Virus record (IMG/VR): IMGVR_UViG_3300013212_000097
Location: 1,888-65,887 of that record
Direction: 5' to 3' (one strand)
Length of the DNA stretch: 64,000 bases
Origin: a virus
Lineage: Duplodnaviria; Caudoviricetes
Part shown: positions 31,586 through 50,369 of the stretch, in pieces
How the letters are laid out: the number at the start of each line of letters is the position of its first letter
Numbering within the stretch: the stretch's first letter is position 1
Program-made: the position numbers and the translations under genes
The notes under the pieces: generated by a model
Databases searched by the model: none
Seen by the model: the letters and a program-made list of their open reading frames with translations, nothing else
Told to the model about the DNA's origin: nothing

Positions 31586-31682
31586 ATTAGTAAATTTCAT
31601 ATTTAGTTTTGTAGTTGCATTTGCGATTATCACAATTCTAAAAGTTGCATGTGATTAGAATTATGGTATAATAATTTTGTAG

Positions 31683-31756
31683 CGCGGGATGGAGCAGTTT
31701 GGTAGCTCGGTAGTCTCATAAATTACAGGTCGAGGGTTCGAATCCCTCTCCCGCAC
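31683..31756 (+). tRNA. tRNA-Met(CAT) with initiator-like acceptor stem
   Basis: CGCGGGA/TCCCGCA with C1:A72 mismatch; GTAGT-ctCATaa-ATTAC; GGTTCGAATCC; no encoded CCA. Confidence 0.88.
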
Positions 31757-31761
31757 GATGG

Positions 31762-32042
31762 TCCAACTTAGCTCAGCGGTAGAGCAATCGGCTGTAAACA
31801 GATAGCAGCTTATTAGAGTAATTTAATATAGAAAATTGTCGAAATTCAGTGAAAACTAAGTCGAAAGATATGTCAACACTGAGCCAAGCCTGTAAGGGAA
31901 GGTGCAGAGACTATAATGACGACATCCTACTAGGTAATGCTAAGGATGATGGTATAGTCCAGACTACAAACAGATTATCTGGTAGTGAAAACTATAGTAG
32001 TAAGTAACCGATCGGTCGCTGGTTCGATCCCAGCAGTTGGAG
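31762..32042 (+). tRNA. tRNA-Asn(GTT), intron-containing (exons 31762-31795 and 32005-32042)
   Basis: TCCAACT/AGTTGGA acceptor; spliced arm ATCGG-ctGT|Taa-CCGAT; GGTTCGATCCC. Confidence 0.9.
31796..32004 (+). ncRNA. Group I self-splicing intron, IC3-like, 209 nt, no ORF
   Basis: P1 GGCTGT/GCAGCT with U.G at the splice site; P4 TCAGTG/CACTGA; R GAAGGTGCAGAGACTA; P8 CATCCT/AGGATG; S GGTATAGTCC; terminal G. Confidence 0.92.
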
Positions 32043-32046
32043 TTTT

Positions 32047-32119
32047 GGTCTGTTAGTCGAGTGGTTAAGATGTCTCCCTTTCACGGAGAAGACCAGGGGT
32101 TCGATCCCCCTACAGACTA
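32047..32119 (+). tRNA. tRNA-Glu(TTC)
   Basis: TCTCC-ctTTCac-GGAGA; GGTTCGATCCC; GGTCTGT/ACAGACT. Confidence 0.92.
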
Positions 32120-32197
32120 TAATGACTCTTTTGCTTAATTGCAAAGGAGTTTTTTTATTTAAGTACGTATAATAATAATGGTGTTCAGTTCGAATGA

Positions 32198-32971
32198 ATG
32201 TCATTAGGAGAATTTATGAGAAATTGTTTAAAATGCAACAATAAAATTCCATTTAGTATGGTTATAGATGGAAAAGTAAGAAAATTTGATAAAAGAAAAT
32301 ATTGTTTGGATTGTTCACCTTTCGGATTACATAACACAAGAAGTTTGCAAAATGATGACACAAGAGTTGTTATGAAGATTTGTGAAATTTGTGAAAGAGA
32401 ATATCAAGGTGGACATAGAAAACATAAAGATAAATGTGGTAGATGCTATAGTTTAGCCTATAGGACTAAAACAAAAGAAAGAGCTATTGAATATAAAGGT
32501 GGAGCTTGTTCAGTTTGTGGTTATAAAAAATATATTGGCTCTTTGCATTTTCATCACGTATATCCAGAAACTAAATCATTTAATATCGGTGAAATTAATT
32601 TTAGAAAATTTGACCTTATTGTTGATGAATTAGATAAGTGCATTTTAGTGTGCTCTAACTGCCACGGAGAAATACACGCTGGGCTTGTTGATGCTAAAGA
32701 AATTTTTAATTTTCAACAAGCAACATTTCCAAAATATATTAAAGAAATAAAACCAGAAAAATTCTATCAACCCGTCATAAAAATCTCAAGAAGACCAGAT
32801 AAAGAAATTTTGCAAAAATTAGTCTGGGAAATGTCTTGTGTAAAGATTGGAGAAATGTATGGAGTAAGTGATAATGCTGTCAATAAATGGTGCAAAATCT
32901 ATGGTATTTCTAAACCTGGCAGAGGAGATTGGGAAAAACTTAAGGCTGGAAAAATTGACAAACCTGAATAA
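32198..32971 (+). CDS. Free-standing HNH homing-endonuclease-like protein with Zn ribbons and C-terminal HTH
   Basis: GGACSVCGY...LHFHH...CILVCSNCHGEIH; IGEMYGVSDNAVNKW. Confidence 0.85.
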   Translation: MSLGEFMRNCLKCNNKIPFSMVIDGKVRKFDKRKYCLDCSPFGLHNTRSLQNDDTRVVMKICEICEREYQGGHRKHKDKCGRCYSLAYRTKTKERAIEYKGGACSVCGYKKYIGSLHFHHVYPETKSFNIGEINFRKFDLIVDELDKCILVCSNCHGEIHAGLVDAKEIFNFQQATFPKYIKEIKPEKFYQPVIKISRRPDKEILQKLVWEMSCVKIGEMYGVSDNAVNKWCKIYGISKPGRGDWEKLKAGKIDKPE

Positions 32972-32982
32972 ATGGGTACAAT
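32955..32982 (+). promoter_or_regulatory. Sigma70-like promoter for tRNA-Gln/Thr
   Basis: TTGACA-16-TACAAT. Confidence 0.65.
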
Positions 32983-32998
32983 CTAAATGTAAGAATAT

Positions 32999-33070
32999 TC
33001 CCCTGTAGTGAAACTGGCATCACATCAGTTTTTGGAGCTGAAATTCCTTGATCGTACTGAGGCGGGGGAA
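32999..33070 (+). tRNA. tRNA-Gln(TTG) with atypical T-loop
   Basis: TCCCCTG/CGGGGGA; TCAGT-ttTTGga-GCTGA; T-loop ATCGTAC. Confidence 0.7.
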
Positions 33071-33082
33071 TCTTACTAATTT

Positions 33083-33156
33083 GCCTCTGTAGCTCAAAGG
33101 TATAGCAATGGTTTTGTAAACCATTTTAATTGCAAGTTTGATTCTTGTCGGAGACT
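33083..33156 (+). tRNA. tRNA-Thr(TGT), degenerate or pseudo
   Basis: ATGGT-ttTGTaa-ACCAT; acceptor mismatch; T-loop TTTGATT. Confidence 0.55.
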
Positions 33157-35167: not shown

Positions 35168-35201
35168 AGTTTTGTAAGTTGAAATGATGGCATTTGAATA
35201 T

Positions 35202-35275
35202 GCACCAGTAGCTCAGTTGGATAGAGTAGCAGGTTTCTACCCTGTTTGTCGGGGGTTCGAATCCCTCCTGGTGTA
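35202..35275 (+). tRNA. tRNA-Arg(TCT)
   Basis: GCACCAG/CTGGTGT; GCAGG-ttTCTac-CCTGT; GGTTCGAATCC. Confidence 0.93.
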
Positions 35276-35336
35276 TTATAATATCCCCTAATGAAAATTA
35301 GGGGATATTTTGTTTATGTTCTAGAATATATTCTTT

Positions 35337-35999
35337 ATGTGGTACAAAAAAGCTAAATTTGATTCTGAAATTGATAATATAAATAAAACAAATGATCCTG
35401 ATAGTCTCTATGGAGCAATGACAGGATATATTTTTTCAATCAAGCAAAAAACCTCTGATTTGCAAAAAATATCAGATGCACTTAGAAGTTATAAAAATAA
35501 GTTAGTTGTTGAAGGTAAATTCCCTACACAGGAAATTGAAGATGCCTATGATTCAATTGTTTATAGTGAAAATTTACCCTCAAATGATGAAAAGTCTGAG
35601 ACTATAAATGACACAGGTGATTTAAATTTTAAAAAACCACTTGAAGGTGAAATCACTTCAAATTTTGGACCTAGAGATGCTCCTATGGAAGGTGCATCTA
35701 AAAACCATCAAGGTCTTGATATTGATGGAGAAGAAGGCGATTATGTTGTAGCTTCTGAAAGTGGCACAGTTACGCATGCTGGTCCTAAAGGTAGCTATGG
35801 CAATTTGGTGATTATTGATCATGGTGGCGGTTATGAAACTTATTATGCACACTTGAGTAATGTTGATGTTCGTGTTGATGAAGAAGTGATGCAAGATAGA
35901 GTAATTGGAAAAGTAGGGAAAACAGGACGTGCTACAGGTTCACATCTACATTTTGAACTGCGAAAAAATGGAACACCCATTTCTCCACCTTTCAGCTAA
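35337..35999 (+). CDS. MWY-tagged M23 peptidase
   Basis: HQGLD, YGNLVIIDH, YAHL, ATGSHLHFE. Confidence 0.92.
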   Translation: MWYKKAKFDSEIDNINKTNDPDSLYGAMTGYIFSIKQKTSDLQKISDALRSYKNKLVVEGKFPTQEIEDAYDSIVYSENLPSNDEKSETINDTGDLNFKKPLEGEITSNFGPRDAPMEGASKNHQGLDIDGEEGDYVVASESGTVTHAGPKGSYGNLVIIDHGGGYETYYAHLSNVDVRVDEEVMQDRVIGKVGKTGRATGSHLHFELRKNGTPISPPFS

Positions 36000-36053
36000 T
36001 ACAATACCCCCTCTTGCAGGGGGTTTTTTCTTTTAAAATAGAATAATTGACTT

Positions 36054-36554
36054 ATGTGGTATAAATTTGCATCTCAGAGCTTAAATTTTGATAACGATCC
36101 AATAATTACAAGAATTGAGAAAATTAGTAATGAGATTGCTAGTGCTGCTCAATCAGTGTATGACAGCTGGGATCCAAATAATTACAATTCTGAAGAAGAA
36201 TATAGACATGCCTGGGGTGTTGGTGGAATTTGTAACGATATAGCTCAGAAAATAGCTGAGGTTGTTAATAAAGAATTTCCAGAATTTACAGTTCTCACTC
36301 AAAATTCAGAAGGCGAACATTGTAATCATGAATTTGTTCAACTTGTTATAACTTCCAATGAAGCGTTTGATTTTCCAGTTGATAGCGATGAAGAAGAGAT
36401 TGTTGATGTGTATGACATTGATATACCTTATTCATGTTATGAAATATGTAATAGTTATTATGAATTTACACGAATCAAAGATGTCAAACTTTCAGGTGAT
36501 AGTGTCAGTATTCATAAACATAGACAATATTTAGCAGATATAAGAGAGTATTAA
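36054..36554 (+). CDS. MWY-tagged protein, possible papain/transglutaminase-like fold
   Basis: GGICNDIA...H...DID gives Cys-His-Asp order. Confidence 0.45.
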   Translation: MWYKFASQSLNFDNDPIITRIEKISNEIASAAQSVYDSWDPNNYNSEEEYRHAWGVGGICNDIAQKIAEVVNKEFPEFTVLTQNSEGEHCNHEFVQLVITSNEAFDFPVDSDEEEIVDVYDIDIPYSCYEICNSYYEFTRIKDVKLSGDSVSIHKHRQYLADIREY

Positions 36555-36555
36555 G

Positions 36556-37065
36556 ATGTGGTATAGAATTGTTTTAGCAACATTTGGAATTCACCCTAAA
36601 GAAAAAGAAGCTGTTGAATTTTATGGAGTCACTGACAATCCACAACTTGCTGGTTATATCTTGAGTGATGGAAGATTTCTTGATTATTCTGAGGGAGGAT
36701 ATGAAAGATCTTTAGACCACAGAAATATTGAAAATATAATGGACGACCCCGAAGAATCCAAGGGCAGTAGATACAGTGATTACGTAGAACCATTCATGAA
36801 AATGACAGGAGCTATAAGAGCGTCAAATTATGGCTGTTGGGATTTAGATATTTTCACCCCACCAACAGCTGAACAAATGAGAACTATAGTAAGCCATCAT
36901 AATAAGGTATTTGACCGTCGTAATATGGATGGCGATGGCTATTTCCCAGATTTTCATATAAAGGTTGACCCATTAGGGATTAAAGAAACAATACCTAATG
37001 CAACAAAAGAAGCTGTAAGCAATAAGTTATTATCTATAAGGAACCAATTGCTAAATGTGGTATAG
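36556..37065 (+). CDS. MWY-tagged hypothetical protein
   Basis: AGYILSDG.FLDYS...DHRNI...GAIR...PT.EQ. Confidence 0.65.
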   Translation: MWYRIVLATFGIHPKEKEAVEFYGVTDNPQLAGYILSDGRFLDYSEGGYERSLDHRNIENIMDDPEESKGSRYSDYVEPFMKMTGAIRASNYGCWDLDIFTPPTAEQMRTIVSHHNKVFDRRNMDGDGYFPDFHIKVDPLGIKETIPNATKEAVSNKLLSIRNQLLNVV

Positions 37066-37382
37066 AATTTCTCAATCTTTGTTTAATCAAACTTCTGAAA
37101 TTAATGAAGAATGGTTGCAAAGACATCAAGTTCAAAAAGAGGGTGATAAATATGTTTTTTATCATGGCTCTAGAATTGATTTTAATGTATTCATTATTAG
37201 CCACCACACCTGAAGAAGCAACAGACTTTGGCGACACTAATTTTTTCAATGATAGAAGAAAATCTCTTATAATTTACAAAGTATTAGTTTCTCCTGAAGA
37301 AATAGTTCCTGGATATTGGGCATCATTAATTAACAATCATCCTGTAAGTGTTTTATATAAAATTAAAAAGAAAGTAAAATAA
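37055..37382 (+). pseudogene. Frameshifted MWY-tagged ADP-ribosyltransferase-like gene
   Basis: MWYRISQ...YVFYHGSRIDFN (stop at 37211) continues in another frame as YSLLATTPEEATDFG. Confidence 0.55.
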
Positions 37383-37383
37383 A

Positions 37384-39204
37384 ATGTGGTACAAACTTGC
37401 GCAAAATGTAGAGAGAGCTTACGAAACACTTAAAACTAAAGGTGTAAGCGAAGACACAATTAACAAACTTCAACAATTAACTGATATTCCCCTCAGAGGT
37501 AAATATATTGGCGCATTGATGCAAAACCCATCTATGCCTTGGAATGAGTTAGAAGAAAAATTTAGTCCTAAACAAGAAATGAAAGTGTCAATCCAAGAAA
37601 TCAGATACTTGTTTGATTTGAAAAGAATGCTCTCAGGTTCTTATTTGCCCGAAGAACCAAAAGCTAATTTTTATAGGTGGGTAGACAGAGTAGCTTTGCC
37701 TTCATATAGACCCAATCAGCATAATCCAGAAAATTACACTTATCCAAAATTTTCACAAATGCCAAATCCTATATATAGTATTCAAAGAGAATTAGATCAT
37801 GTATATGATTGGTATTGTGAATATATGGATGAAAATCCAAGATTCAACATTTTTTCTATGTCTCTTGATAATGCATTACAAGCAAGCGATGAATGGCATG
37901 AAGAACTTGCTAATCAAACAACTGGAAGTAAATTTACAAAAATTAAGAAACAAAATGGGAAGATTGTTGACCCCAATGTTGTAATGGTGTTTGATGAAGA
38001 CACAATCAACTCACTTGGATTATCAAAAGAATATGTTGATTGGATGATTGTAAAACTTACAGTTGAAACTGATTTCCGGTTAGAAGCTGGCATTATGGGT
38101 CACTGTTTAGGAACAAATAGATACTTTGATAAGTATGAAAAGGGTGGTTGTGAGATCTACTCATTAAGAGATGAATCAAATCAACCTCACACAACTATTG
38201 AAATTATACCACCTGACACTGTTGAACAAATACAGGGAAAAGGCGATAGAACACCAAAGTCTGATTATTTAAAATTAGTCCAACATTGGGTAATTGCAAA
38301 CAACTTCTATTCATCAAGCAAAGAACATGATCCTTATTTAGATTTTAGAACAGGTATGGGCGAAGAAAGAGCACTTGAAGCTATTTTTGAATATAGGAAT
38401 CCATATCATGATGAAGATGCAGTAGATCTTTTAGGCGTTCCAATCAGACCACCATCAATAAATGACGAAGATTTCTTAAGTGAATTCAACTTGGATCATT
38501 TTATTGATCAAGTTGGAGTTAATAATAATGGTCACTACAAAACTTATCAAGAAATTCCTGATGATGATAAATTTGATGAGTTGGTAAATTTTTTAGGCAA
38601 TTTATATATTGAACACGACATCAAGTTATTAAGAGAATATGCAAGTCAAACACGTCCTTTAGGAACTGAAAGAAAGGCAGTCGTAGATAAACTTAAAACT
38701 ATATATGTTAGAGATAATTTCGAATATGCATTGTCAAAAGAATTGGATTTTGTTAAAGATTATAGAGATGTTAAAGTTGATGATGAATTTGGTGCTGCAA
38801 AAGAAACGAATTTTACTAACAAAAGCCCTGATGAAATTAACCAGATAGCTCAACAACCTTTTATGAGAAAAGATGCAAGGGGTTATGGTGAATTACGTGA
38901 ATATGACGGAGTTTACGATGTATATCCAGTTCATTTCTATAATGCTTTGTATGATTATATCCGAAAAAATTTACCAAGAGAATTTTTTGATTTAGCTAAT
39001 AAACTTTCTTTGGGATTAGATTTGCCGAATATCACTTCAGATTATATAATTGAAAGAGAAAAACAATATATGGGTTCTTTGGGTAGAGGAGGCAGAAGAG
39101 GCAGACAATTAGCTTTATTTGACACTGAACTTAACATTCCAGATGAAGAAAAAGAATGGATTTATGCTTTCAATAATAAAAGACACAGATTGGCGAGAAA
39201 GTAA
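37384..39204 (+). CDS. MWY-tagged PcfJ-like domain protein
   Basis: E..IMGHCL...IYSLRD..NQPH.TIE...QIQGK. Confidence 0.7.
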   Translation: MWYKLAQNVERAYETLKTKGVSEDTINKLQQLTDIPLRGKYIGALMQNPSMPWNELEEKFSPKQEMKVSIQEIRYLFDLKRMLSGSYLPEEPKANFYRWVDRVALPSYRPNQHNPENYTYPKFSQMPNPIYSIQRELDHVYDWYCEYMDENPRFNIFSMSLDNALQASDEWHEELANQTTGSKFTKIKKQNGKIVDPNVVMVFDEDTINSLGLSKEYVDWMIVKLTVETDFRLEAGIMGHCLGTNRYFDKYEKGGCEIYSLRDESNQPHTTIEIIPPDTVEQIQGKGDRTPKSDYLKLVQHWVIANNFYSSSKEHDPYLDFRTGMGEERALEAIFEYRNPYHDEDAVDLLGVPIRPPSINDEDFLSEFNLDHFIDQVGVNNNGHYKTYQEIPDDDKFDELVNFLGNLYIEHDIKLLREYASQTRPLGTERKAVVDKLKTIYVRDNFEYALSKELDFVKDYRDVKVDDEFGAAKETNFTNKSPDEINQIAQQPFMRKDARGYGELREYDGVYDVYPVHFYNALYDYIRKNLPREFFDLANKLSLGLDLPNITSDYIIEREKQYMGSLGRGGRRGRQLALFDTELNIPDEEKEWIYAFNNKRHRLARK

Positions 39205-39210
39205 AATAAA

Positions 39211-41424
39211 ATGTGGTACAAACTTGCGCAAAATGCAGAAAAAGCTTTTGAAACACTTAAAACAAAAGGTGTGAGCCAAGAAAATATTTCCAAGCTTGAA
39301 GAGATGACAGATCTTGCTTTGAGAGGAAAATATATTGGAGCATTAATGCAAAACCCATTAATGCCTTGGAATCAATTGGAAGAAAAATTCACTACTAAAA
39401 AAACCAATAATCTTTCAGTTCAAGAAATGAGATTACTTGGTGAAATAGATACTTTAGTTACAAATTCTAATCTTCCAGAAGATCAACAAGCTAATTTTTA
39501 TAAATGGGTAGATAGAGTAGCAATTCCTTCCTATAGACCAAATCAATTTGATCCAGAAAAGTATATTTATCCTAAGTTTTCTGGTGCATACAATCCAGTG
39601 TTTGAAATAGAAAGAGAAATTAATCATATTTTTGACTGGTATGTTAATCATATTGATCAAAACCCCAGATTTAATATTTTCTCAATGTCTCTTGATAATG
39701 CATTGCAAGCAAGCGACAGATGGCACGAAGAACTTGCAAATCAAACATCTACAAGAACTTTCTCTAAGATAAAGAAAGAAAATGGACAGATTGTAGATCC
39801 TAATGTAGTAAAAGTTTTTGATAGAGATACTCTTGAAAAAATTGGATTACCTGAAAAATATCAAGGCTGGATGATTGTAAAACTTACTGAAGAAAATGAT
39901 TTTGAGATAGAGGCAGATATTATGGGTCACTGCCTAGCAACAAATAATTACTTTTATCAATATGAAAAAGGCTATATTGAAATCTACTCTTTGCGTGATG
40001 AATCTAATCAACCACATGTAACAATTGAAATTGTTTTGCCAGACAAAGTTAAGCAAATACAAGGCAAAGGTGAAAAAAGACCAAAAGATGATTACTTGAA
40101 ATTAGTTCAACAATGGATATATCAAGGAAATTATTATTCAAATGATAGTAGTCATGATCATGAATTGCATTTTAGAACAGGTTTTGATGAAAACAGTGCA
40201 TTAGAATCTATACAAGAATATTTAAATCCATATTTTGATGAAGAATCAACTGACGATTTAGGTGTCCCTTTAAGACCGATTACTGTAGATGAAGATGAAT
40301 TTGTTGAAGAATTTGATATTGACTATTTGATAGATAAAATAGGACAAAAAAGTGGTGGATATTATAATGATCCAGAATTTTACAAATCATCTGAAGAAAT
40401 TAATTATGATGCATTTGAAGAATTAATTTCTTTTATTGGAGAAATGTTCATTCACCACGATATTAATTACTTAAAAGAATATGCAAAAGAAACTCGTCCA
40501 TTAGGTATTAATCAAAAAGAAATCAAAGCTAAGCTTAAAATCGAAGTTGTTAAGGATCACTTAATGACTTATATTAATGAAGAATTAGAGCAGATTACTT
40601 ACCCACAAAGTAGAAAATTCAGAGAAGAAGATTTAGGTCCTGCAAGATCTTTTAACTTTAAAGATAAAAATCCAGGAGAAATAGACGAAATAGCAATGTC
40701 GTCATATCGTAGAGAACCTAAACGTGGTAGAGCTAAATTTGATGAAGATGGTGAAAGAATACTTAAACAATATAATGGAATCTACGATGTATATTCAGTT
40801 TACTTTGCAGATGAGTTGTATGAGTATATGTTAAAAAATCTTCCATCTGAGTTTTATGGATTAGCTAATAAAATCGGATTGAATTTAGATTTATCACCTG
40901 TTACCCCAAGTTCTGTTGTGGAATTTAACAATGAATACAGAGACTTCTACCAAGGAAGAAATAGACAGTTAGAATTATTTGATTCTAACTCTAATGTATC
41001 TCCCGAAAAATGGATTTATGCCTTTAATCATAAAAAGTTTAGATTAGCAACATTACAAGACGAGGGACTGTCTGATTTTGGCTACAATGATTTATTCAAA
41101 CCTTCTAAAGATATATCTAACAAACAAATATTAGAAAATATCAAAGATTTTTATATTAGCAAGTGCTTGCAAACAATTAAATCTGAAGGACCTGATCCTG
41201 ATTATGTTGGCAATTATTTTGCAGACATAACTGAAGAACTGCATTTAATGTGGGAAGAATATATAGACGACATAAAAAAAGGCGATATTACTTCTTTGAA
41301 GAATGTTATTGAAATTGCTTTAAGCTACGAATCAACACTTTCCAAAGACTCAAATGAATATGAAAAATTGTCTGAAATGATTTCATCAGGCAACATAGCA
41401 GTAGTGATAAAGAGAGATTTATAA
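39211..41424 (+). CDS. MWY-tagged PcfJ-like protein, tandem paralog with C-terminal extension
   Basis: Colinear with 37384..39204; same motifs. Confidence 0.7.
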   Translation: MWYKLAQNAEKAFETLKTKGVSQENISKLEEMTDLALRGKYIGALMQNPLMPWNQLEEKFTTKKTNNLSVQEMRLLGEIDTLVTNSNLPEDQQANFYKWVDRVAIPSYRPNQFDPEKYIYPKFSGAYNPVFEIEREINHIFDWYVNHIDQNPRFNIFSMSLDNALQASDRWHEELANQTSTRTFSKIKKENGQIVDPNVVKVFDRDTLEKIGLPEKYQGWMIVKLTEENDFEIEADIMGHCLATNNYFYQYEKGYIEIYSLRDESNQPHVTIEIVLPDKVKQIQGKGEKRPKDDYLKLVQQWIYQGNYYSNDSSHDHELHFRTGFDENSALESIQEYLNPYFDEESTDDLGVPLRPITVDEDEFVEEFDIDYLIDKIGQKSGGYYNDPEFYKSSEEINYDAFEELISFIGEMFIHHDINYLKEYAKETRPLGINQKEIKAKLKIEVVKDHLMTYINEELEQITYPQSRKFREEDLGPARSFNFKDKNPGEIDEIAMSSYRREPKRGRAKFDEDGERILKQYNGIYDVYSVYFADELYEYMLKNLPSEFYGLANKIGLNLDLSPVTPSSVVEFNNEYRDFYQGRNRQLELFDSNSNVSPEKWIYAFNHKKFRLATLQDEGLSDFGYNDLFKPSKDISNKQILENIKDFYISKCLQTIKSEGPDPDYVGNYFADITEELHLMWEEYIDDIKKGDITSLKNVIEIALSYESTLSKDSNEYEKLSEMISSGNIAVVIKRDL

Positions 41425-42224
41425 TGTGGTACAAATTAGCTATCACTAAAGTTGATCCTTCTGGTCAAATCAACATGGATTTCTCTGGTAAAAACAACTA
41501 CCCAGTAAACCCTGGAGAAAAACCAAAGCCTTTTGATTTGAATAATCTTAAGTTTGAGGTTGTTCAGGAAGATCCAATTGAATATCCAGAAGAATATACT
41601 TTGTATGCCTTGTTAAATGATGGAAGAAAATTAGGTTACATTTATTTTGAAGCTCCTGATAATTCTGATACAGCTGACATAAAATACACATCAATTTACG
41701 AATATCCTACATCTTTAGGCAAAGAAAAATGGGAAAAGCCTGTAAATCCAGAAGATAAAACTAAATCTCAATTTGTTGAAGAATTAAAAAATGCTGGTTA
41801 CTTAGTTGATGATTCTTCAGTTACTAGAACTGATTGGGGTATTGGGAAAACATTGTATCAAGAATTGAAAAAATTTCTTCAGGAAAACAAACCAAACATA
41901 AAATTTGTCACTGGAAAAGTTCATTCCAAAGAAGCATTTTGGGCAAGATATAAAGGACTTGGTTTTCCAGTAGAAGCTTTAGATCCCTATCAATCTTATA
42001 ATAAAGAAATTAATGAAAAACATTCTTATTTGTCTGAAGAAGAAAAACTTAAGATGATCAGAAATATGGCTAATGAATTAGGAAGTTCTTCATTTGATTC
42101 AAGTGGACGTTCAGATGCGCCAAAATGGGAATTTAATGTTAAGAATAAGATTGAAAATTTACCATCTGAAAAAGAAATAAATATTGATTCCGAAAATCTT
42201 TCTTTATTCGACGAGGCAAAGTAA
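41424..42224 (+). CDS. MWY-tagged protein, possible GNAT-like fold
   Basis: LGYIYF...ADIKY...RTDWGIGKTLYQEL resembles acetyl-CoA motif A. Confidence 0.45.
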   Translation: MWYKLAITKVDPSGQINMDFSGKNNYPVNPGEKPKPFDLNNLKFEVVQEDPIEYPEEYTLYALLNDGRKLGYIYFEAPDNSDTADIKYTSIYEYPTSLGKEKWEKPVNPEDKTKSQFVEELKNAGYLVDDSSVTRTDWGIGKTLYQELKKFLQENKPNIKFVTGKVHSKEAFWARYKGLGFPVEALDPYQSYNKEINEKHSYLSEEEKLKMIRNMANELGSSSFDSSGRSDAPKWEFNVKNKIENLPSEKEINIDSENLSLFDEAK

Positions 42225-43855
42225 TGTGGTACAGATTTGCAGGTTTACAAGACGAAGTAGAAAAGTTACGCATTCAAGGCATAAATGAACTTATTTTAGC
42301 CTTATTTTCGGATCCAAAATATGATAATGCGTCTAAAGGTAAAATGCTAGGTGCTATCAAGCAAAATCCAAATATTTCAATAGAAGAATTAAGAAATCTT
42401 TCTATGCAAAACAAACCAACAAAAGGAGAGCAATTTATTTTAGCTCGTTTTGAAAATGAAAGATTCAAAAACTGGTTTTTTCATAAATTGAAAAGTTGGA
42501 GAATTCAACCTGCAAAACCTGATGGAGAATATGATCACAACACTCCAAAAGAAAACCTTGGAGAACATGCAAATTTTACAGAACTAGCTATCCACATGCA
42601 AGATTTTGTAAATAATATTGAAATTAATGATCCCGATTATAATTTAGGTTTAAGATCTTGGGAGGAAGTAGTTCAAGATACAGATCAATGGGAATCAATG
42701 TTGCAAGGTAGAGGCTCAAGTAAATTTTATAATCCAGCTGACAGAAATGAAATAATGAAATACCCAGATGGCTGGAGTATGGTAGAAGTGATTTCTGAAA
42801 ATGATTTAGACGTAGAAGGCGCAAAAATGCACCACTGTGTTGCTGGGTATTGGGAACAAGTAAGAAAAGGCAACACTAATATTTATTCCTTGAGAGACCC
42901 TGGAAATCAACCACATGTAACAATAGAAGTGGTTGGTGATAAAGTAAAACAAGTCAAAGGGCATAATAATAAAAAAATTACAGAAGATGATTTAGTAGAA
43001 AAAATTAAAGAGTTCTTTGAAAGCCAGGATGATATTGAAAAAGATATCAGACATAATCCAATAGAGGGTCATTTTGAAAATTGGGAAGATGGAATATATT
43101 GGACTTATGACCCAACTGAAATAGATTACAATATTCACAGATCTACATATGGTCCAGAAGAATATGAATTTGATGATCTCGATGATGATGGTCCTGAAGA
43201 TTTTAACATATTTGGTATCAATTCACCAGTATTTTCATATAAAAAATTCAGTGAAGGAAATTTATATCAGGCTAGTATGACAGATATTACAACTAATGTT
43301 GTAGATTCGATTAACAATGGTTTAAGTAAAAACAGAAGCGCATATAATTATGGGGATAGAAAAGAATATACTATCGAAGATTATGATTTAGACGATTACT
43401 CTGATAAAATATACGAAGGATTAGTGGCTAAAGCTAATTTAGCCTTAACACAACGTCCAATGGCTCATGATTTTGGAAAATATTTGGATGCTAGACATTT
43501 TCTTGAAGTGTCTACAAAAGAATATGAAAGCATGAAAGAAAAATATCAAGAAGATTCACCTGCTGAAGATTTTGCAACATGGTATCAAAATCAACCTGAA
43601 TTTTTGTGGTTCATTATTGCAGAAAAAATTCAAGAATGGTTTGAAAAGAGTGATTTTGCATTTAAATTCAAAGACATAAGAGGCGAAGAGTTTAAATTGC
43701 CTTCTGGATATAAAAAATGGTGGTATGGCGGAGAAGAATCGGAAAATATCACTCCTTTCATCAATACTAAGGAAATTAGAGAAACAGTGTTAAAAGATGA
43801 TGAAAAATTTGCATCATACAATAATAATAATTACAGAAAAAATTGGGTAAAGTGA
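42224..43855 (+). CDS. MWY-tagged PcfJ-like domain protein
   Basis: EGAKMHHCV...IYSLRD..NQPHVTIEV...QVKG..N. Confidence 0.7.
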   Translation: MWYRFAGLQDEVEKLRIQGINELILALFSDPKYDNASKGKMLGAIKQNPNISIEELRNLSMQNKPTKGEQFILARFENERFKNWFFHKLKSWRIQPAKPDGEYDHNTPKENLGEHANFTELAIHMQDFVNNIEINDPDYNLGLRSWEEVVQDTDQWESMLQGRGSSKFYNPADRNEIMKYPDGWSMVEVISENDLDVEGAKMHHCVAGYWEQVRKGNTNIYSLRDPGNQPHVTIEVVGDKVKQVKGHNNKKITEDDLVEKIKEFFESQDDIEKDIRHNPIEGHFENWEDGIYWTYDPTEIDYNIHRSTYGPEEYEFDDLDDDGPEDFNIFGINSPVFSYKKFSEGNLYQASMTDITTNVVDSINNGLSKNRSAYNYGDRKEYTIEDYDLDDYSDKIYEGLVAKANLALTQRPMAHDFGKYLDARHFLEVSTKEYESMKEKYQEDSPAEDFATWYQNQPEFLWFIIAEKIQEWFEKSDFAFKFKDIRGEEFKLPSGYKKWWYGGEESENITPFINTKEIRETVLKDDEKFASYNNNNYRKNWVK

Positions 43856-43859
43856 TAAA

Positions 43860-46202
43860 TTAATATTCGTTATCATCAAAATCCATAAACATCATGTATT
43901 TTTCTTCAATATAATCTTGTACTGGTTCGCCTAATAATCTTCTGCTAAATTCTTCTTTAATGTCTCTAAATTGCGCCATAGTAACTGTTGAATTAATTCC
44001 AAGATCATCAGCTTCCATATTGTGAAATTTATCAGCAGGTCTCATACTTAAGAGTTGCATTGCTTTTTGTCTTGTTATTGTGGCATTAGGATCAACTGGC
44101 AATGCTGGCGCTGGCTGAATCTTTCTTTGAACAGGATAAAGTCCAGGGAATCTCTTTTTCAAAACTGCCTGTAAGTTTTCGTTAGCAATTGCTTTTAGAA
44201 CTTGTGTCTTGTTATCTCTGGCATAAGCATATGCATCAGGATTGCTAGCTATAGCATTTTTTTGATCTTCAGATGCATCTTGAGCAAATTCAATTGTGAA
44301 TTTGTCAGATTTGATAAGCATATGAACGAATGTTTCTTCATTCATCAAACTAGCAGGTATTTCCAGTATTGAGTTTACATTCTCAATAATAATCTCAAAT
44401 ACTCCTTCAAGACCTAATTCTCCAGAAGCATCTATAACTTCTCTAGGTAAATCATTAATGACATATGATTCTGATAAAAGACCTTGAGCATACAATTGAA
44501 AAGCTATGTTGAAATCATAACTATCATAAGGATCATCTGACATTGCAGCAACAACTGTACCAAACTGATTGATTCTTTCATTTTCTTCTATGTCAGATCC
44601 ATAGTTATAAACATTGAATTCATCATCAGTATTGTATTTACCACCTAATACTTTTACTGATATAAGATTGTTCTTGATACATTCAAAAACAAAATCAGGT
44701 GTCAACACTTCTTTCGTGAGATATAAAGGCTTTTCTATTTTGTATTCATTTGACAATATAGATTCTTGCACTTTTTGTATTGCTTCCTGAATATCAATTT
44801 TGCCTATGATAGCCTTTTCAAAGAAATCTAAATCCATTTCTTGTTTTGCAAAAGCATCAATAATACTATCAGTGTCAAATAAAGATTGGAATTTTTCTCT
44901 TGCAATTTCACTGAAAGATGGCATAAGATTTTGAAGTTCATCTATACTAAATAATTCAAAAAATCTATAATCAAAAGTAAAGTCTGAAGTGAATATTTTC
45001 TCTGAAATAAACTTTTTGGCATATTCTTTCATCTCTGGATTAATATCAAAATTAGAAATGCCAAGTCTTGGAAAATTGCCAACAAAACTTTGAATATATC
45101 TTCCCAGCACTGTGTAAACTTTGTATTTTACAATCTCATCAAAATCTTCTTGGTTAAAACCTGAACTTACAGAGCCTAATAGTTTATTTCTAATTCTATT
45201 TTTATTTAATGCAGGGTCTTTTTTAATAACTGCTACTATTTCAGCTGGTAAATATGTATTTGATGAAATAAGATTTAATAAATCACCAAATACATTTTTT
45301 CTTTCGTACATGAACATAAATTGTGCAAATGTAAGATCATGCATTCTAAGAACGTATGCTTCTTTGTCACTGTACGAGAGATCCATAAACCAAGATAAAC
45401 TTTTGTTTTGCTTTGAAAATCTTCTTTTGTTATCATCTTCTTCTGGTGACAATGGTCTAGGAGCAAAATCTTCTTTTTTAATTTCGCCACCAGAAACATC
45501 ACTCAAATATTGGAAATAACCATCAATACTTTTTCCATAATTTTTACCATTGACAACTAAATTAGCCATCAATTTATCACCAGTCTCATTTATTTCATCA
45601 GTGATTTGAATGCCTGCTGGTCTTACGTCAATTGCAACTTTTCTAAATGGATAACTTCTATTAGGATCTTCAACTATGTAAAAATTACTAGATTCATCGT
45701 ATCTGTATTTTAAGAACATTCCAGTGGAACGATCACCAATACACCATGATGTGCCTACACAAGTTTTTTCAGATTCATCATAAGTTTTTGGATTGAATAT
45801 TTTGATTTTTTCATTAGTTATGACAGGCTCCAAATCTTGAGTGGCTGCCATATCTTTTTTAGGTTTTAATTGAGAATCTAAATAATCTACATGTTCAACA
45901 ATAGCCTCAAAATCATCAAAATCAACTTCATCAAAAGCAGATTTTATTTCAAGAGAATTTTTTGAAACTTTTGTGGTAATAACATTTTTTTGTTTTAAAT
46001 TAAATAATTTTTCAGATAAATGTGAAAGAGCTAAAGTTGTTTCAATAGAATCTCTGTTATCTGCAACAATATAACAATATGCAAGTTCTAATTGAATGTT
46101 GGTTGGCGCATTTTCAATTACTTCTGGAACAGGCAAAGGAGAAAGAAATTTTTGAATTTGAGCAGAGGCAGATACGATTATTTTTGAAAACTTATACCAC
46201 AT
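43860..46202 (-). CDS. MWY-tagged large hypothetical protein
   Basis: MWYKFS start; GTSWCIG block. Confidence 0.7.
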   Translation of the reverse strand: MWYKFSKIIVSASAQIQKFLSPLPVPEVIENAPTNIQLELAYCYIVADNRDSIETTLALSHLSEKLFNLKQKNVITTKVSKNSLEIKSAFDEVDFDDFEAIVEHVDYLDSQLKPKKDMAATQDLEPVITNEKIKIFNPKTYDESEKTCVGTSWCIGDRSTGMFLKYRYDESSNFYIVEDPNRSYPFRKVAIDVRPAGIQITDEINETGDKLMANLVVNGKNYGKSIDGYFQYLSDVSGGEIKKEDFAPRPLSPEEDDNKRRFSKQNKSLSWFMDLSYSDKEAYVLRMHDLTFAQFMFMYERKNVFGDLLNLISSNTYLPAEIVAVIKKDPALNKNRIRNKLLGSVSSGFNQEDFDEIVKYKVYTVLGRYIQSFVGNFPRLGISNFDINPEMKEYAKKFISEKIFTSDFTFDYRFFELFSIDELQNLMPSFSEIAREKFQSLFDTDSIIDAFAKQEMDLDFFEKAIIGKIDIQEAIQKVQESILSNEYKIEKPLYLTKEVLTPDFVFECIKNNLISVKVLGGKYNTDDEFNVYNYGSDIEENERINQFGTVVAAMSDDPYDSYDFNIAFQLYAQGLLSESYVINDLPREVIDASGELGLEGVFEIIIENVNSILEIPASLMNEETFVHMLIKSDKFTIEFAQDASEDQKNAIASNPDAYAYARDNKTQVLKAIANENLQAVLKKRFPGLYPVQRKIQPAPALPVDPNATITRQKAMQLLSMRPADKFHNMEADDLGINSTVTMAQFRDIKEEFSRRLLGEPVQDYIEEKYMMFMDFDDNEY

Positions 46203-46210
46203 GATATGTT

Positions 46211-46594
46211 TTATTCTACAGGTTCATAGGAAATTCTTACCAAAGGATCTCCTGATATATACAAATATCTTACATGAACATTTTCAATATATCTTGATGT
46301 ATCATCTGGAAATATTTCAGCTCTCACTAAAAGATCAATTAATGGCTTGGCTAAATTATCAATATCATTTTTTTGTCTCCATAAATGATTAGCCATCACA
46401 AGCAATTCAACATTTACTGGAAACTGTTTAGCAGGCAACATATCCTGGATTACAACTGGGAGATTTTTGTCAATCCATGCATTATATTTTCTAGATTTCA
46501 CCATTTTTCCACGAGCAATTGGAACATACATTTGATTTGCAGAAAAAGGTTTATTTACAATGCACGATGTCTTTTGCATCATGAATTTATACAA
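46211..46594 (-). CDS. rusA: RusA family resolvase
   Basis: PFSANQMY, DIDNLAK..IDLL, PDD. Confidence 0.88.
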   Translation of the reverse strand: MYKFMMQKTSCIVNKPFSANQMYVPIARGKMVKSRKYNAWIDKNLPVVIQDMLPAKQFPVNVELLVMANHLWRQKNDIDNLAKPLIDLLVRAEIFPDDTSRYIENVHVRYLYISGDPLVRISYEPVE

Positions 46595-46641
46595 GTCAAA
46601 TGCAGAATTTATTTTTCTTGAAAAAAAAGATATAATAGATT

Positions 46642-47010
46642 ATGCAAGACAAAAGTTATTGGTTATTTTATGTTTTTGTAGAATGTATGATTTACAACAA
46701 TAGATCATTTTGCGAAGATGATTTCAAAGCATTATTAGATTCTCAAAGATTAAGTCAAATAAAAATGAACTTCAATGATGAAGTTAAAGACTTTGTAGAT
46801 GAATGTAAAATATTAGATGATATAGATTATGAACTTAACAAAAACAATTACTGGATGCCAAAAAATAACATTATAAATCACGACTATAATTTGAAAACTA
46901 TTATTCAAGATTTGCGACTGGATTTAGAGTTAGAACATGCAAATAATGATTTTTATGATTCTTCTTGCGATATAGTGCAAAAAATAAACAACTATTTACA
47001 TTTTCTATAA
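46642..47010 (+). CDS. Hypothetical protein
   Basis: TATAAT just upstream of ATG. Confidence 0.6.
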   Translation: MQDKSYWLFYVFVECMIYNNRSFCEDDFKALLDSQRLSQIKMNFNDEVKDFVDECKILDDIDYELNKNNYWMPKNNIINHDYNLKTIIQDLRLDLELEHANNDFYDSSCDIVQKINNYLHFL

Positions 47011-47057
47011 ACCCTTGAATAAAGGGTTTTTCTTTTTAACATGCAAAAAATATATGT

Positions 47058-47804
47058 ATGTGGTACAGAACAGTTATAGCTCAAATATCTGATGTTGATC
47101 AATTTAATTTAGATGCTGAGAAATATAATAAAATGCTTGAGGAAAAAGCAAAAAAAACTCAACCTAAAAAAACAACAAAACCTGTAATAAAACCTGTCAC
47201 TAAACCAGAATTAACAACTGAACCTATAAGCCCAAAACCCAAACCTGTAGCGCCAAAACCAATTGCGCCAACCTCTAATCCTTCAAAACCAAACAACTTC
47301 AAAAATATAATAAATAACTTAGTAGAACTTGAAGGCGGAAAATCCAATTTATCTTATGATAAAGGCGGTAAAACAAATTTAGGTATCACACAATATACCT
47401 ATAACAATTGGAATAAAAAACACAATAAACCACTTAAAGATGTTTATAAGATAACAAGACAAGAAGCAGATCAAATTTACAAAGAAGAATATTGGAACAT
47501 TATAAAAGGTGACCAACTACCACCAAATGTTGCGCACATTATGCTTTCACAAGCTCTTCTTGATGGTCCACAAGATTCAATAAGACTTGTACAAAAATTA
47601 TTAGGTTTAAAAGTGGATGGAATTATGGGTTCTGACACTTTAAACAAAATAAAAAGACTCACTGTCAACGGAGACATAAAACTAGCCAAAGCAATAGCAA
47701 ATAAACAAATTTATAGACTAAAAACTGATGAAGATGCTGATAAATTTGGTAAAGGCTGGAATAATAGAGTTCAAAAAGTAATGAAAAAATTTAAAGGAAA
47801 ATAA
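47058..47804 (+). CDS. MWY-tagged GH108 lysozyme
   Basis: EGG.SN...DKGG.TN.GIT, IYK..YW, VDGIMG..T, F..GW.NRV; Pro/Lys linker. Confidence 0.88.
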   Translation: MWYRTVIAQISDVDQFNLDAEKYNKMLEEKAKKTQPKKTTKPVIKPVTKPELTTEPISPKPKPVAPKPIAPTSNPSKPNNFKNIINNLVELEGGKSNLSYDKGGKTNLGITQYTYNNWNKKHNKPLKDVYKITRQEADQIYKEEYWNIIKGDQLPPNVAHIMLSQALLDGPQDSIRLVQKLLGLKVDGIMGSDTLNKIKRLTVNGDIKLAKAIANKQIYRLKTDEDADKFGKGWNNRVQKVMKKFKGK

Positions 47805-47986: not shown

Positions 47987-48958
47987 ATGCAAATCTATGG
48001 AAAATTTTCACAACTAATTATAGAAGCATATAGAAATCCAAATTTTAGATTTGCTGAAGAACCTTCGCCTGAACCAGAGCCAGAAATAGTAGCACCTACA
48101 GCGTTAAATTATCCTGGTTTGTTTGCAAGAATGCAAAGTTTAGAAGATGATAAAAAACTTAGCATCTATATGAATTTAAAAAGAGCACAGACAAAATTAA
48201 AACTAAAATATAATATTGATTCACTATTACCAATAAAATTAGATTCAACTAAATCTCCAGCTGAATATAGTGACAATTCAAATTCCAACACTGATGAAAA
48301 AATACAAACATATTTTTATAGAGTGTTTGCATATTTAGTTGATTATTTTGAAAATGAAGCTTCATCTGCTCCTACAAGTGAATCTACATCGTCATCAGAA
48401 TCAGAAGAGTCAAATCCATTTGCAGTGACTGATCCATCAACTGATTCAAGTTCTAGTGAAACATCAGCTACAACCGAAACTACATCAAGTGGCGAAACAA
48501 CATCTACAACTAGTTCAGATACATCGGAAGAACTTGCTGAGAATATCCCACCAATTACAATTAAAGTAAGTGGTAAAGAATATTCGCCAGCCAAATCTAT
48601 CACACTTGTTAAAAGAGTAAATTTAATTGGCAGTAATCGAAATAGTGCTATAGTCTTAGATGATGATTCCGTCACTGATTATAATTGCTTCATCCAATTT
48701 GAAAATGAAAAATGGAAATTATCGAAATTTAATGATTCATATTTAACTATAAACGGAAATATTGTTGATGAATTCTTTGAGTTGAACGTTGGCGATTATT
48801 TTGTTCCAGGCACTAAGGAGACATATATATTATCGGTGGAGAGGATAGGAACTGATAGTGGTGGATTCTCTGGTGAAAGTGCACCAAGTAGTGGTGGATT
48901 CTTTGGTGATGGTGGTGGAAGCGGTGGTGGCTTTGGTGGTAGAAGAAGATCATTATAA
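47987..48958 (+). CDS. FHA-like domain protein with Ser/Thr linker and Gly tail
   Basis: LIGS...IVLDD.SV...C.I...W...INGN; phosphothreonine-binding residues degenerate. Confidence 0.55.
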   Translation: MQIYGKFSQLIIEAYRNPNFRFAEEPSPEPEPEIVAPTALNYPGLFARMQSLEDDKKLSIYMNLKRAQTKLKLKYNIDSLLPIKLDSTKSPAEYSDNSNSNTDEKIQTYFYRVFAYLVDYFENEASSAPTSESTSSSESEESNPFAVTDPSTDSSSSETSATTETTSSGETTSTTSSDTSEELAENIPPITIKVSGKEYSPAKSITLVKRVNLIGSNRNSAIVLDDDSVTDYNCFIQFENEKWKLSKFNDSYLTINGNIVDEFFELNVGDYFVPGTKETYILSVERIGTDSGGFSGESAPSSGGFFGDGGGSGGGFGGRRRSL

Positions 48959-49400: not shown

Positions 49401-50369
49401 TTATCTTACAGGATTGCCAAACTGATCAAGAATACTTTGCCCAGTTGGGTAATAGCTTTTACCCCATAAGAAATTGTTTGGATTGATTGTTGTATCAAAC
49501 TTGAAGAACTTTGCATGACCATCTGCAAATACATAATTAGAACCACCAGTGTGTCTGCCTGGTTCCATAAAACGAGTGTGATATCCAGTATCCGCTGATA
49601 CAGATCTGCAACCACCTGTGCCGTTTGAACTTGTTGAATCTGATCCACCACCCCAACCAAGAGCGCCTTCAGCTTCAAACTTTGTGATTGCAAAGATTGG
49701 ACCTGTTGCATCTGCAAAGTTCTGTCCAGCCCACTGACCGCCACTTGCTGTACGCATCATGGCGTTAACTGGTCTGTGACTCTTATTGCGCTTTTCAGTA
49801 TTAAGTTGACCAGTTGAACCAAGAAGGATGCAGTTGAGGTTACTGGTCATTTCTGCAATAGCAATAACATCTGCAGGAGCATCAACAGAAGCGATTGCAA
49901 CAATGTTTGGTGCATCTTGTGGACCACGCTTACGCGGAAGAACTGCAGAGTTTGGAATGTAAGAAAGACGAGGAACTTGTGCTTCACAACCAAGTGTCAC
50001 AACATCTAACCAGTTTGCACATGGTGGGTTGTCAGGACGAACACCCTTGTTAGGATCTGATGGACAAACCCAAACTTGCTCATTCTTGATATAAGGATGA
50101 ATCATAGCTGTGAAGTGGACATAACCACCAGAAGAACCACCATTAGTAGTAGCAGTATTGTTCTTATAGAAATAAGCAGTTGGATAAGTCTCATCATAAT
50201 CTTGGGTATACATCATGAGACCTAAACCAATTTGCTTTTCATTTGACAAACAACTAGCAGAACGAGCCTTGTCACGAGCCTGTGCAAAAACAGGGAAGAG
50301 GATAGCTGCCAAAATCGCAATGATAGCGATGACAACAAGTAATTCAATTAAAGTAAAAGCTTTTTTCAT
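49401..50369 (-). CDS. Prepilin-type N-methylation / DUF1559 / H-X9-DG protein
   Basis: [29 protein letters not shown]...CLSN.KQ; [14 protein letters not shown]. Confidence 0.93.

Follow-up and report, generated by a model that had tools for sequence, protein, structure and literature searches.

Ten genes in one stretch of viral DNA start with the same short peptide, MWY[KR], ahead of proteins with diverse domains. The stretch, called the window from here on, comprises 64,000 nucleotides of the virus record IMGVR_UViG_3300013212_000097 (Caudoviricetes), i.e., all but 1.9 kb of a 65,887-base record which is judged 18% complete. Judging by its sequence relatives, the source is an uncultured lake jumbo phage of ~320-360 kb related to Bacillus phage G. 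The comparisons reported here support the view that MWY[KR] is a modular N-terminal label, selected at the level of the peptide, which is attached to unrelated cargo and conserved across a phage clade. As to its function, we lean towards a prohead- or virion-targeting tag analogous to the capsid targeting sequence (CTS) of phage T4, with packaging itself being inferred.

The mechanism we envisage is simple. The tag would probably fold as an amphipathic helix, some ten residues long, and lead into a flexible stretch. It would dock its carrier onto a component of the assembling prohead, i.e., the scaffold core, a protease-scaffold fusion, the inner surface of the capsid or the portal. Varied enzymes would thereby be enclosed in the head and delivered to the host along with the DNA. 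Wall hydrolases may then serve entry, and ART, InPase, NUDIX, GNAT, DnaJ and PcfJ-like proteins takeover or counter-defence. The tag may have arisen on a small protein of the head module, whose gene lies directly upstream of the portal, and may have been copied later to other genes.

In the window the pattern ATGTGGTAYARR is present 10 times against 0.05 expected, a number reached in 0 of 100 dinucleotide-preserving shuffles. By residue frequencies, MWY[KR] starts are expected at ~0.006 per 100 genes; the window has 10 among ~106 open reading frames (ORFs). ATGTGGTAY is found 11 times: ten are the starts of tagged ORFs, and the 11th (51770, minus strand, MWYS) meets a stop after 6 codons. The tag codons vary, with TAT or TAC for Tyr and AAA, AAG or AGA for the basic residue. 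An earlier note on this DNA had reported ten tagged proteins. All ten starts are real, nine on the plus strand and one (46202) on the minus strand; the ORF at 37055, however, has only 52 amino acids (aa), its gene being broken by 11 missing bases. The tagged genes are, in order:

35337..35999, plus strand: starts MWYKKAK; M23 peptidase, 220 aa (Pfam Peptidase_M23, 2e-33)
36054..36554, plus strand: starts MWYKFAS; 166 aa, function unknown (no Pfam or PHROG match; BLAST family F03 with 7 other tagged proteins)
36556..37065, plus strand: starts MWYRIVL; 169 aa, fold not recognised (MWY[KR] in 39/39 aligned sequences)
37055..37382, plus strand: starts MWYRISQ; broken gene, 52-aa ORF with the remainder at 37104-37382 (11-base deletion compared with the relative L001)
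37384..39204, plus strand: starts MWYKLAQ; PcfJ-like paralogue, 606 aa (BLAST family F02 with two Pfam-positive paralogues; no Pfam match at 0.01)
39211..41424, plus strand: starts MWYKLAQ; PcfJ-like, 737 aa (Pfam PcfJ 8.3e-07, 29.4 bits against a cut-off of 25)
41424..42224, plus strand: starts MWYKLAI; GNAT-fold protein, 266 aa (Foldseek top matches all GNAT/GCN5, E 2e-4, probability 1.0)
42224..43855, plus strand: starts MWYRFAG; PcfJ-like, 543 aa (Pfam PcfJ 2.9e-12)
43860..46202, minus strand: starts MWYKFSK; 780 aa, function unknown (ORF plus tag; no family match)
47058..47804, plus strand: starts MWYRTVI; GH108 lysozyme with peptidoglycan-binding domain, 248 aa (Pfam Glyco_hydro_108 5.7e-21, PG_binding_3 8e-05)

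The M23 peptidase and the GH108 lysozyme, both named in the earlier note, are firmly assigned by Pfam. Its three PcfJ-like proteins are also recovered, those at 39211 and 42224 by Pfam and the one at 37384 as a BLAST paralogue only. The proposed GNAT fold is borne out by Foldseek for the 41424 protein and is weak for the 36054 family, in which a 276-aa relative (L001:5819-6646) has a GNAT match at E 0.0017, below the cut-off. ART domains are found by Pfam in tagged proteins of relatives; none was demonstrated for the window proteins, and the assignment of the window 112-aa family was dropped (BLAST against an ART-PolyVal protein, E = 2). A Cys-protease fold, also suggested, was not found among the tagged proteins. 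The 36556 protein is well folded in its AlphaFold2 (AF2) model (predicted local distance difference test, pLDDT, 85.6), yet fold searches returned Foldseek E values > 0.3, a best VIA Z of 3.9 and no usable match in the ESM Atlas.

Individual genes deserve brief comment. The 11 bases missing from the 37055 gene are present in L001 and in contigs of 4/4 lake metagenome runs from four studies; in its intact, usual form the gene encodes 112-113 aa with the tag, and intact homologues are present in L001 and L003. The 42224 protein has tagged homologues in L001, L002 and L003 at 85%, 61% and 34% identity. Among GenBank phages it is matched only by the PcfJ domain of Bacillus and Enterococcus phages, over 14-21% of the query, and the 41424 protein has no match there.

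Conservation of the peptide across the clade

Two near-complete relatives, G002 (316 kb) and G003, are judged 88% and 89% complete. They contain ATGTGGTAYARR 10 and 12 times, respectively, and a reversed-pattern control 0 times. All 22 copies begin ORFs, of 74-602 aa. MWY is the commonest N-terminal tripeptide of called ORFs, i.e., 9 of 106 in G000, a count which leaves out the broken 37055 gene as falling below the ORF length limit, 11 of 324 in G002 and 15 of 397 in G003. Sixteen further records of portal relatives were searched; 15 contain the pattern in 1-9 copies each, with controls at 0-1. Among records with more distant relatives of the major capsid protein (MCP) the pattern is present in 4/16. 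Because of this difference between portal relatives and distant MCP relatives, the tag appears to be a trait of one sub-lineage. A few of the fetched copies are not ORF starts or have another fourth residue (MWYL, MWYH, MWYT), and one opens a 15-codon frame.

In total, 94 tagged proteins were collected. Grouped by blastp (1e-3) without their ten N-terminal residues, they make up 39 BLAST families, with 10-15 tagged proteins per near-complete genome. From 66 non-identical N-termini the consensus reads M-W-Y-[R/K]-x-[A/V/S]-[Q/K/L/I]; position 10 is often hydrophobic and followed by Gly in many. In two cargo families, 36556 and 41424, M1, W2 and Y3 are kept in 39/39 and 38/38 aligned sequences, and the proteins have diverged to ~50% identity. 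These alignments comprise the window protein plus 38 of 39 homologues (36556; the 97%-identical P0002 was left out) or 37 of 40 (41424) from a collection of 5.8 billion proteins. The 41424 family further shares an invariant VDPSGQINMDF in 38/38. A 521-aa protein of record G013 (L207:108-1673) is a tandem fusion of two units of this family. Its internal unit keeps YKIAITQVDPSGQINMDF (YKIAIT...VDPSGQINMDF), but K-H replaces M-W. In the fusion, as far as its sequence tells, the Trp is kept only where it is N-terminal.

The codons show at which level selection acts. Among 135 distinct tagged starts codon 3 is TAT in 82 and TAC in 53. Codon 4 is AGA (57), AAA (47), AAG (11), CGN (8) or AGG (5), and codon 6 specifies Ala in 68 (four codons), Val in 30 and Ser in 16, ten codons being in use for these three residues. 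No base is invariant in the 20 positions upstream. Distant relatives start MSWY[KR], with the extra Ser encoded by TCT, TCA or TCC, and one start is GTG. Because synonymous codons, the K/R exchange, the MSWY variant and the GTG start all occur, selection is concluded to operate on the peptide, not on the DNA. The earlier note had argued this from codon variation in the window, and the argument extends to the clade; purely nucleotide-level conservation, the outcome it had named as fatal to its proposal, is contradicted by the same observations.

One may still object that the conservation serves translation, by an effect of the start-region mRNA or of the nascent peptide, and that the peptide has no partner. 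The tag does sit exactly at the start codon and, as Trp and Met have single codons, part of its conservation is not assignable to the protein as opposed to the RNA level. Yet synonymous sites are free, Lys/Arg is encoded by AAA, AAG, AGA, AGG and CGN and position 6 by ten codons, and the MSWY insertions and the GTG start preserve the peptide. Since the upstream sequences differ among tagged genes as well, we hold this explanation to be highly improbable.

Several observations concern the surroundings of the tagged starts. Immediately upstream of the first tagged gene, at 35201-35276 (plus strand), is a tRNA-Arg(TCT); it reads AGA, which is used more often than any other fourth codon of the tag. 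Four further tRNA genes (Met, Glu, Gln, Thr) are at 31682-33156. In metagenome contigs the tRNA stretch is covered at very high depth and shows tRNA-like loose ends. A sigma70-like motif, TGnTAYAMT, is upstream of 0/35 tagged genes versus 55/827 genes overall, with ~2.3 expected; the word TGnTATAAT shows strong enrichment upstream of other genes, with a cluster at 1-27 kb of G002. The motif WRGAATAW is close upstream of 7/35 tagged genes versus 33/827 overall. As a T/A-R-GAATA-A/T word it lies ~8-12 bases before the start codon (e.g., window 35310-35336, 36030-36053 and 46203-46225 on the minus strand; also in G002 and G003), in the window often behind a GC-rich hairpin. As a late-gene marker it was set aside, since it could not be linked to known late genes.

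The portal-adjacent carrier and the cargo

A tagged gene is part of the head operon, which in G002 encodes, in this order, a 546-aa protein, a tagged 171-aa protein, the portal, a 1405-aa fusion, a very acidic 533-aa protein, a 223-aa protein and the MCP. The portal (130575-132917; L021:10575-12917) matches phrog_16240 (2e-35). It has a conserved C-terminal extension, i.e., a Gly/Pro-rich linker followed by an endonuclease-like domain (phrog_559 'HNH endonuclease', residues 666-762, 1.9e-4). The first 250 residues of the 1405-aa protein (133072-137289, P0001) match the head maturation protease phrog_18299 (3e-16). The remainder is a long, acidic, helical low-complexity region with two zinc-ribbon-like CxxC pairs near the C-terminus. 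The fusion is a candidate for the scaffold core and also a candidate for the tag receptor. A sequence search of the PDB with the 533-, 546- and 1405-aa head-module proteins gave nothing useful. Co-folding of the MCP, portal residues 1-500 and the portal-adjacent tagged protein, with alignments, scored 0.00 and is no evidence either way.

Among 66 portal loci, 60 have a small tagged ORF whose end is only a few bases short of the portal gene; in one more (L095) it lies ~1.7 kb upstream. The remaining 5, with portals which are 47-58% identical, have the MSWY or GTG-start form in the same place. Counting all forms, the tagged ORF is upstream of the portal in 66/66. In proteins of this family a Gly-rich linker follows the tag; the middle is variable and the C-terminus conserved (...LPSNQTW[Y/V]). 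Searching 1.84 billion representatives with a profile brought up 42 members. Of these, 30 start MWY, 4 are near variants (MLWY, MTWY, MWL, MCY), and the rest look truncated or mis-called. In the most distant genomes the tag is confined to the portal-adjacent gene. Most simply, this would be the oldest and most widespread carrier, a head-assembly protein whose N-terminus was later copied onto other genes.

Alternatively, the tag could dock cargo to another part of the virion, such as the tail lumen, baseplate or neck, or to an assembly chaperone, with the cargo still virion-borne. Two cargo proteins are wall hydrolases, which are tail-borne in many myoviruses, and tail genes share the window (weak tail-tube match at 7644-8636). 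Further, the M23 domain of the 35337 protein has its nearest cultured homologue at the C-terminus of a 2899-aa ORF of phage G (41.6% identity over 101 aa). From its size and a phrog_6700 match we take this ORF to be a tape-measure protein that carries a tail lysin; a preprint on phage G lists the tape-measure/tail-lysin protein among those detected in particles (bioRxiv 10.1101/2024.12.16.628780). Indirectly, this homology may count for a virion destination in general. On the other hand, the conserved ancestral carrier belongs to an operon of portal, protease-scaffold and MCP at 66/66 loci, and no tagged gene was found within a recognised tail module. We thus regard docking outside the head as unlikely.

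The absence of export signals bears on a second alternative. Over the first 70 residues the Kyte-Doolittle(15) maximum is <=1.14 in the nine intact tagged window proteins and 3.55 in a prepilin-type control, the test being a hydropathy measure. By this measure, none of the nine has a hydrophobic N-terminal segment, be it a Sec/Tat signal or a signal-arrest-release (SAR) anchor. The wall hydrolases therefore lack a signal peptide, as the earlier note had it, and, having no hydrophobic N-terminus, cannot use the Sec route to the wall. In G002, the GH108 homologue (42976-43938, minus strand, 48.8% identity) has, in place of the tag, a 70-residue N-terminal module with a hydrophobic stretch, ALPLAVGIGTLGNVV, possibly a membrane anchor. 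By sequence comparison, the same enzyme carries different front ends in sister genomes.

Such an exchange is also compatible with an intracellular role, in which the tag is a sorting or interaction peptide for the membrane, the cell pole, a compartment built by the phage or a common hub protein of host or phage origin. An aromatic-basic W-Y-K/R start on a predicted short helix resembles interfacial anchors, and DnaJ, NUDIX and GNAT cargo could work in the cytoplasm. However, a Sec or Tat signal would have to be much longer and much less polar than the tag, and the portal-adjacent carrier is left unexplained. Further, searches for tubulin (PF00091) and RNA polymerase beta (PF00562), as would befit a nucleus-forming phage, found no gene in 4 near-complete genomes (controls 13/14 and 14/14), although divergent phage versions may escape these profiles. 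On balance, intracellular sorting appears improbable.

The cargo of relatives extends the repertoire. Tagged proteins there contain NUDIX plus HAD_SAK_2, ART-PolyVal (PF18760, 2e-11 and 4.7e-12; 45.3 and 47.3 bits, cut-off 31.2), InPase (PF18823, 9.5e-45 and 1.8e-39; 152 and 135 bits) and a DnaJ domain (8e-11), with weak matches to LPD26 (0.0018) and GNAT. Of 30 scanned proteins of relatives, 23 matched nothing in Pfam at 0.01. The Pfam families ART-PolyVal, InPase and LPD26 owe their names to the 'polyvalent proteins' which phages and conjugative elements encode. The effector domains of the polyvalent repertoire are thus represented among tagged proteins by ART-PolyVal and InPase. Polyvalent proteins are predicted to be packaged and injected (Iyer et al. 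2017, PMC5512222). The tagged proteins are mostly of 74-400 aa with one recognisable domain each. They are not polyvalent proteins, because these combine two to fifteen domains per polypeptide.

Many of these enzymes (wall hydrolases, ART) are potentially harmful. The tag might therefore be a control element, i.e., an inhibitory pro-peptide or a site for timed proteolysis or N-terminal modification, and the head operon does encode a prohead protease domain. That seven residues should inhibit 39 unrelated folds is, however, improbable. Nor does the tag pack against the domain in either of two AF2 models. In the 36556 protein it is a short helix (residues 2-10, lower confidence) detached from the domain; in the 41424 protein (pLDDT 75) it lies within a disordered leader of 33 residues. 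In these models, a detached helix or disordered leader is as expected for a docking peptide. An N-terminal Met-Trp is not a substrate for Met removal, so that no N-degron would be exposed. A control function we consider very unlikely.

Other proteins touch on the subject at the margin. The 46202 protein (minus strand) has untagged homologues of 905-1008 aa in G002 and G003 which start MFNNRIVVA, MFNYRIVVA or MKKLSYRIVISG. An 850-866-aa family without family match (window 5044-7644, plus strand; G002 75607-78198, minus; G003 108725-111271, plus), which in the window adjoins the weak tail-tube match, starts MFNFKKF, MFNYKK or MFNFKN, and other large proteins begin MFNNRIVVA or MWNYKRS. Such MFN- or MWN-type starts may be degenerate relatives of the tag, or chance. 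At the other end, a -[N/D]VV C-terminus is frequent in two unrelated tagged families (window 36556-37065 and relatives; G003 226885-227664). A C-terminal 'VV' was dropped as a general feature, being seen in these two. Directly after the tagged lysozyme, a 323-aa protein (47987-48958, plus strand) has a Ser/Thr/Glu-rich low-complexity middle, a Gly-rich tail and an FHA/YscD-like domain (4.3e-06, below cut-off).

Weighing virion targeting, and a parallel in phage G

The case for a prohead- or virion-targeting tag is cumulative. We favor it because the oldest carrier is in the head operon, because the cargo is of types predicted elsewhere to be packaged and injected, because export signals are absent and because precedents are known (T4 CTS, P1 DarB). 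The missing sigma70-like motif upstream of tagged genes adds a weak argument. Of the address tag that the earlier note proposed for the packaging of effectors, the modular N-terminal label on unrelated cargo stands clade-wide. Its targeting to the virion is supported indirectly, by the head-operon carrier, the polyvalent-type cargo and the M23 homologue.

Several points weigh against this reading. Packaging, injection and docking onto a receptor are inferred from sequence. Behind the tag there is no conserved protease site: past position 7 no residue is common to the tagged families, whereas the T4 CTS has L/I-x-E. The cleavage after Ala/Ser which the earlier note considered probable accordingly finds no support in the aligned families. 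For some of the cargo (DnaJ, NUDIX-HAD, GNAT), synthesis in the cell would serve just as well. Tagged genes occur all over the genome, outside structural modules as well. The promoter contrast, 0/35 against ~2.3 expected, is thin. Finally, the parallel in phage G described below is an analogy of pattern only, as the two carrier sets have no sequence homology.

The link to phage G comes from the MCP. The tagged PcfJ-like protein has relatives on records of 52, 316 and 358 kb. The MCP of G002 matches phrog_2522 (5e-67), is 96-98% identical across most of the clade records listed and shares 46.8% identity with gp27 of Bacillus phage G, which is the closest phage in culture. Since the MCP of a relative matches gp27, the window is presumably a piece of a G-like jumbo phage; the clade MCP is G-like, not phiKZ-like. 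Parts of the window stretch are contained in 20 metagenome runs from 10 studies (lake, freshwater, estuary). A possible host clue is a window protein at 49401-50369 (minus strand) whose N-terminus is hydrophobic and prepilin-type; its DUF1559/SBP_bac_10 domain (PF07596, 5.9e-11) belongs to a family typical of Planctomycetota and Verrucomicrobiota.

Phage G itself (NC_023719.1) has no MWY[KR] start. Instead, the motif [KR]RL[ILK][KRS][KRT] is present 13 times in its open frames of >=90 aa (160,364 residues). None of the 13 lies beyond residue 30 of its frame, and each comes straight after Met or a TTG-type start. With a leading Met, 8/8 six-frame matches begin ORFs, of 88-215 aa. The (M)KRLIKK-like sites (loci L227-L252) are, e.g., at 11937, 16055, 28218, 73330, 179204 (minus strand), 245994 and 446709. 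Carriers include gp13, directly upstream of the portal gene gp14, gp17 and gp38. Three carriers continue with [F/Y]HGT[S/D], which we take to be an ART-like motif. gp10 starts MKKSRLKKVSFDGGGG, a layout as in the MWY...FGGG start of the portal-adjacent family. The profile of this family did not match any phage G ORF (best E 0.17). The main texts on the particle proteome of phage G, which comprises roughly 104 proteins, do not name the KRL-tagged gene products.

By analogy, this suggests that G-like phages use lineage-specific N-terminal tags. A wider idea, which we offer tentatively and with rather more doubt than belief, is that such seven-residue 'postcodes', MWY[KR]xA in the lake clade and (M)KRLIKK in phage G, each mark at least a dozen unrelated effectors for loading into the prohead via one co-evolving receptor. 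Cargo would be recruited by gaining the postcode, and the tag would read out, by sequence only, the whole injected arsenal of an uncultured phage. Because phage G has its own motif, confined to N-termini, the idea is testable in a cultured phage.

If MWY[KR] is a packaging address, sequence alone would tell which proteins giant uncultured phages inject along with their DNA. The 39 families, most of no known function, would be a catalogue of candidate factors for entry, takeover and counter-defence. The T4 solution, one short peptide for many cargoes, would have arisen independently in a very different, very large lineage, and 'polyvalent' effector domains would be deliverable as separately tagged proteins. 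A seven-residue tag would also be a compact tool to load foreign proteins into large capsids.

Comparison with known systems

The closest known system is the T4 CTS. It is a short N-terminal peptide of unrelated proteins, i.e., IPI-III, Alt, gp67 and gp68. Its carriers are small head-core proteins encoded beside portal and protease genes as well as injected enzymes that modify the host or block its defence, and it ends in a site for the gp21 protease and is then removed (PMC3012670, PMC5694885). The MWY tag is likewise common to unrelated proteins of one phage (94 in 39 families), and its carriers include a head-module protein upstream of the portal. The differences are equally clear. By description the MWY sequence is distinct, and it has no shared protease site, although a protease domain is present in the head operon. 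The clade has a small HK97-type MCP (phrog_2522); profiles of the T4-type MCP (PF07068) and protease (PF03420) are unmatched in G000-G003, and control genomes were silent too. The MWY carriers form 39 families versus a handful in T4, and their function is a prediction.

A second precedent is DarB of phage P1, in which an N-terminal signal of <30 residues suffices for entry into the capsid and the cargo counters host defence (PMC9024508). Both are N-terminal packaging signals, if our reading of MWY[KR] is correct. The DarB signal is known for one protein and is longer than 9 residues, and no multi-protein consensus is reported for it. In SPN3US and phiKZ, giant phages as well, many proteins are packaged with the DNA and N-terminal regions are implicated in targeting, gp53 and gp54 having identical N-termini (PMC5694885). 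There, however, the propeptides comprise ~100+ residues, are cut at A/S/G-x-E and are shared by paralogues only, whereas MWY[KR] is a matter of seven residues on unrelated folds.

Polyvalent proteins resemble the MWY system in their cargo: ART-PolyVal, InPase, lysozyme, NUDIX and GNAT neighbours and a weak LPD26 are among the tagged proteins (PMC5512222). As described there, a polyvalent protein is one giant multi-domain polypeptide, often with a processing peptidase; the MWY cargo consists of separate small tagged proteins, 'unbundled' as it were. Encapsulins, too, load diverse enzymes by a short terminal peptide. Their cargo-loading peptides are short, extended and usually C-terminal and bind the inner face of an HK97-fold shell; this shell is not viral, and binding of the MWY tag to the MCP is hypothetical. 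A published description of the MWY[KR] tag was not found among the matches listed from the motif-string and jumbo-phage prohead and ejection literature. Set beside these systems, the MWY tag has unusual strengths: it is strictly conserved, its cargo families are many, and its ancestral carrier can be identified.

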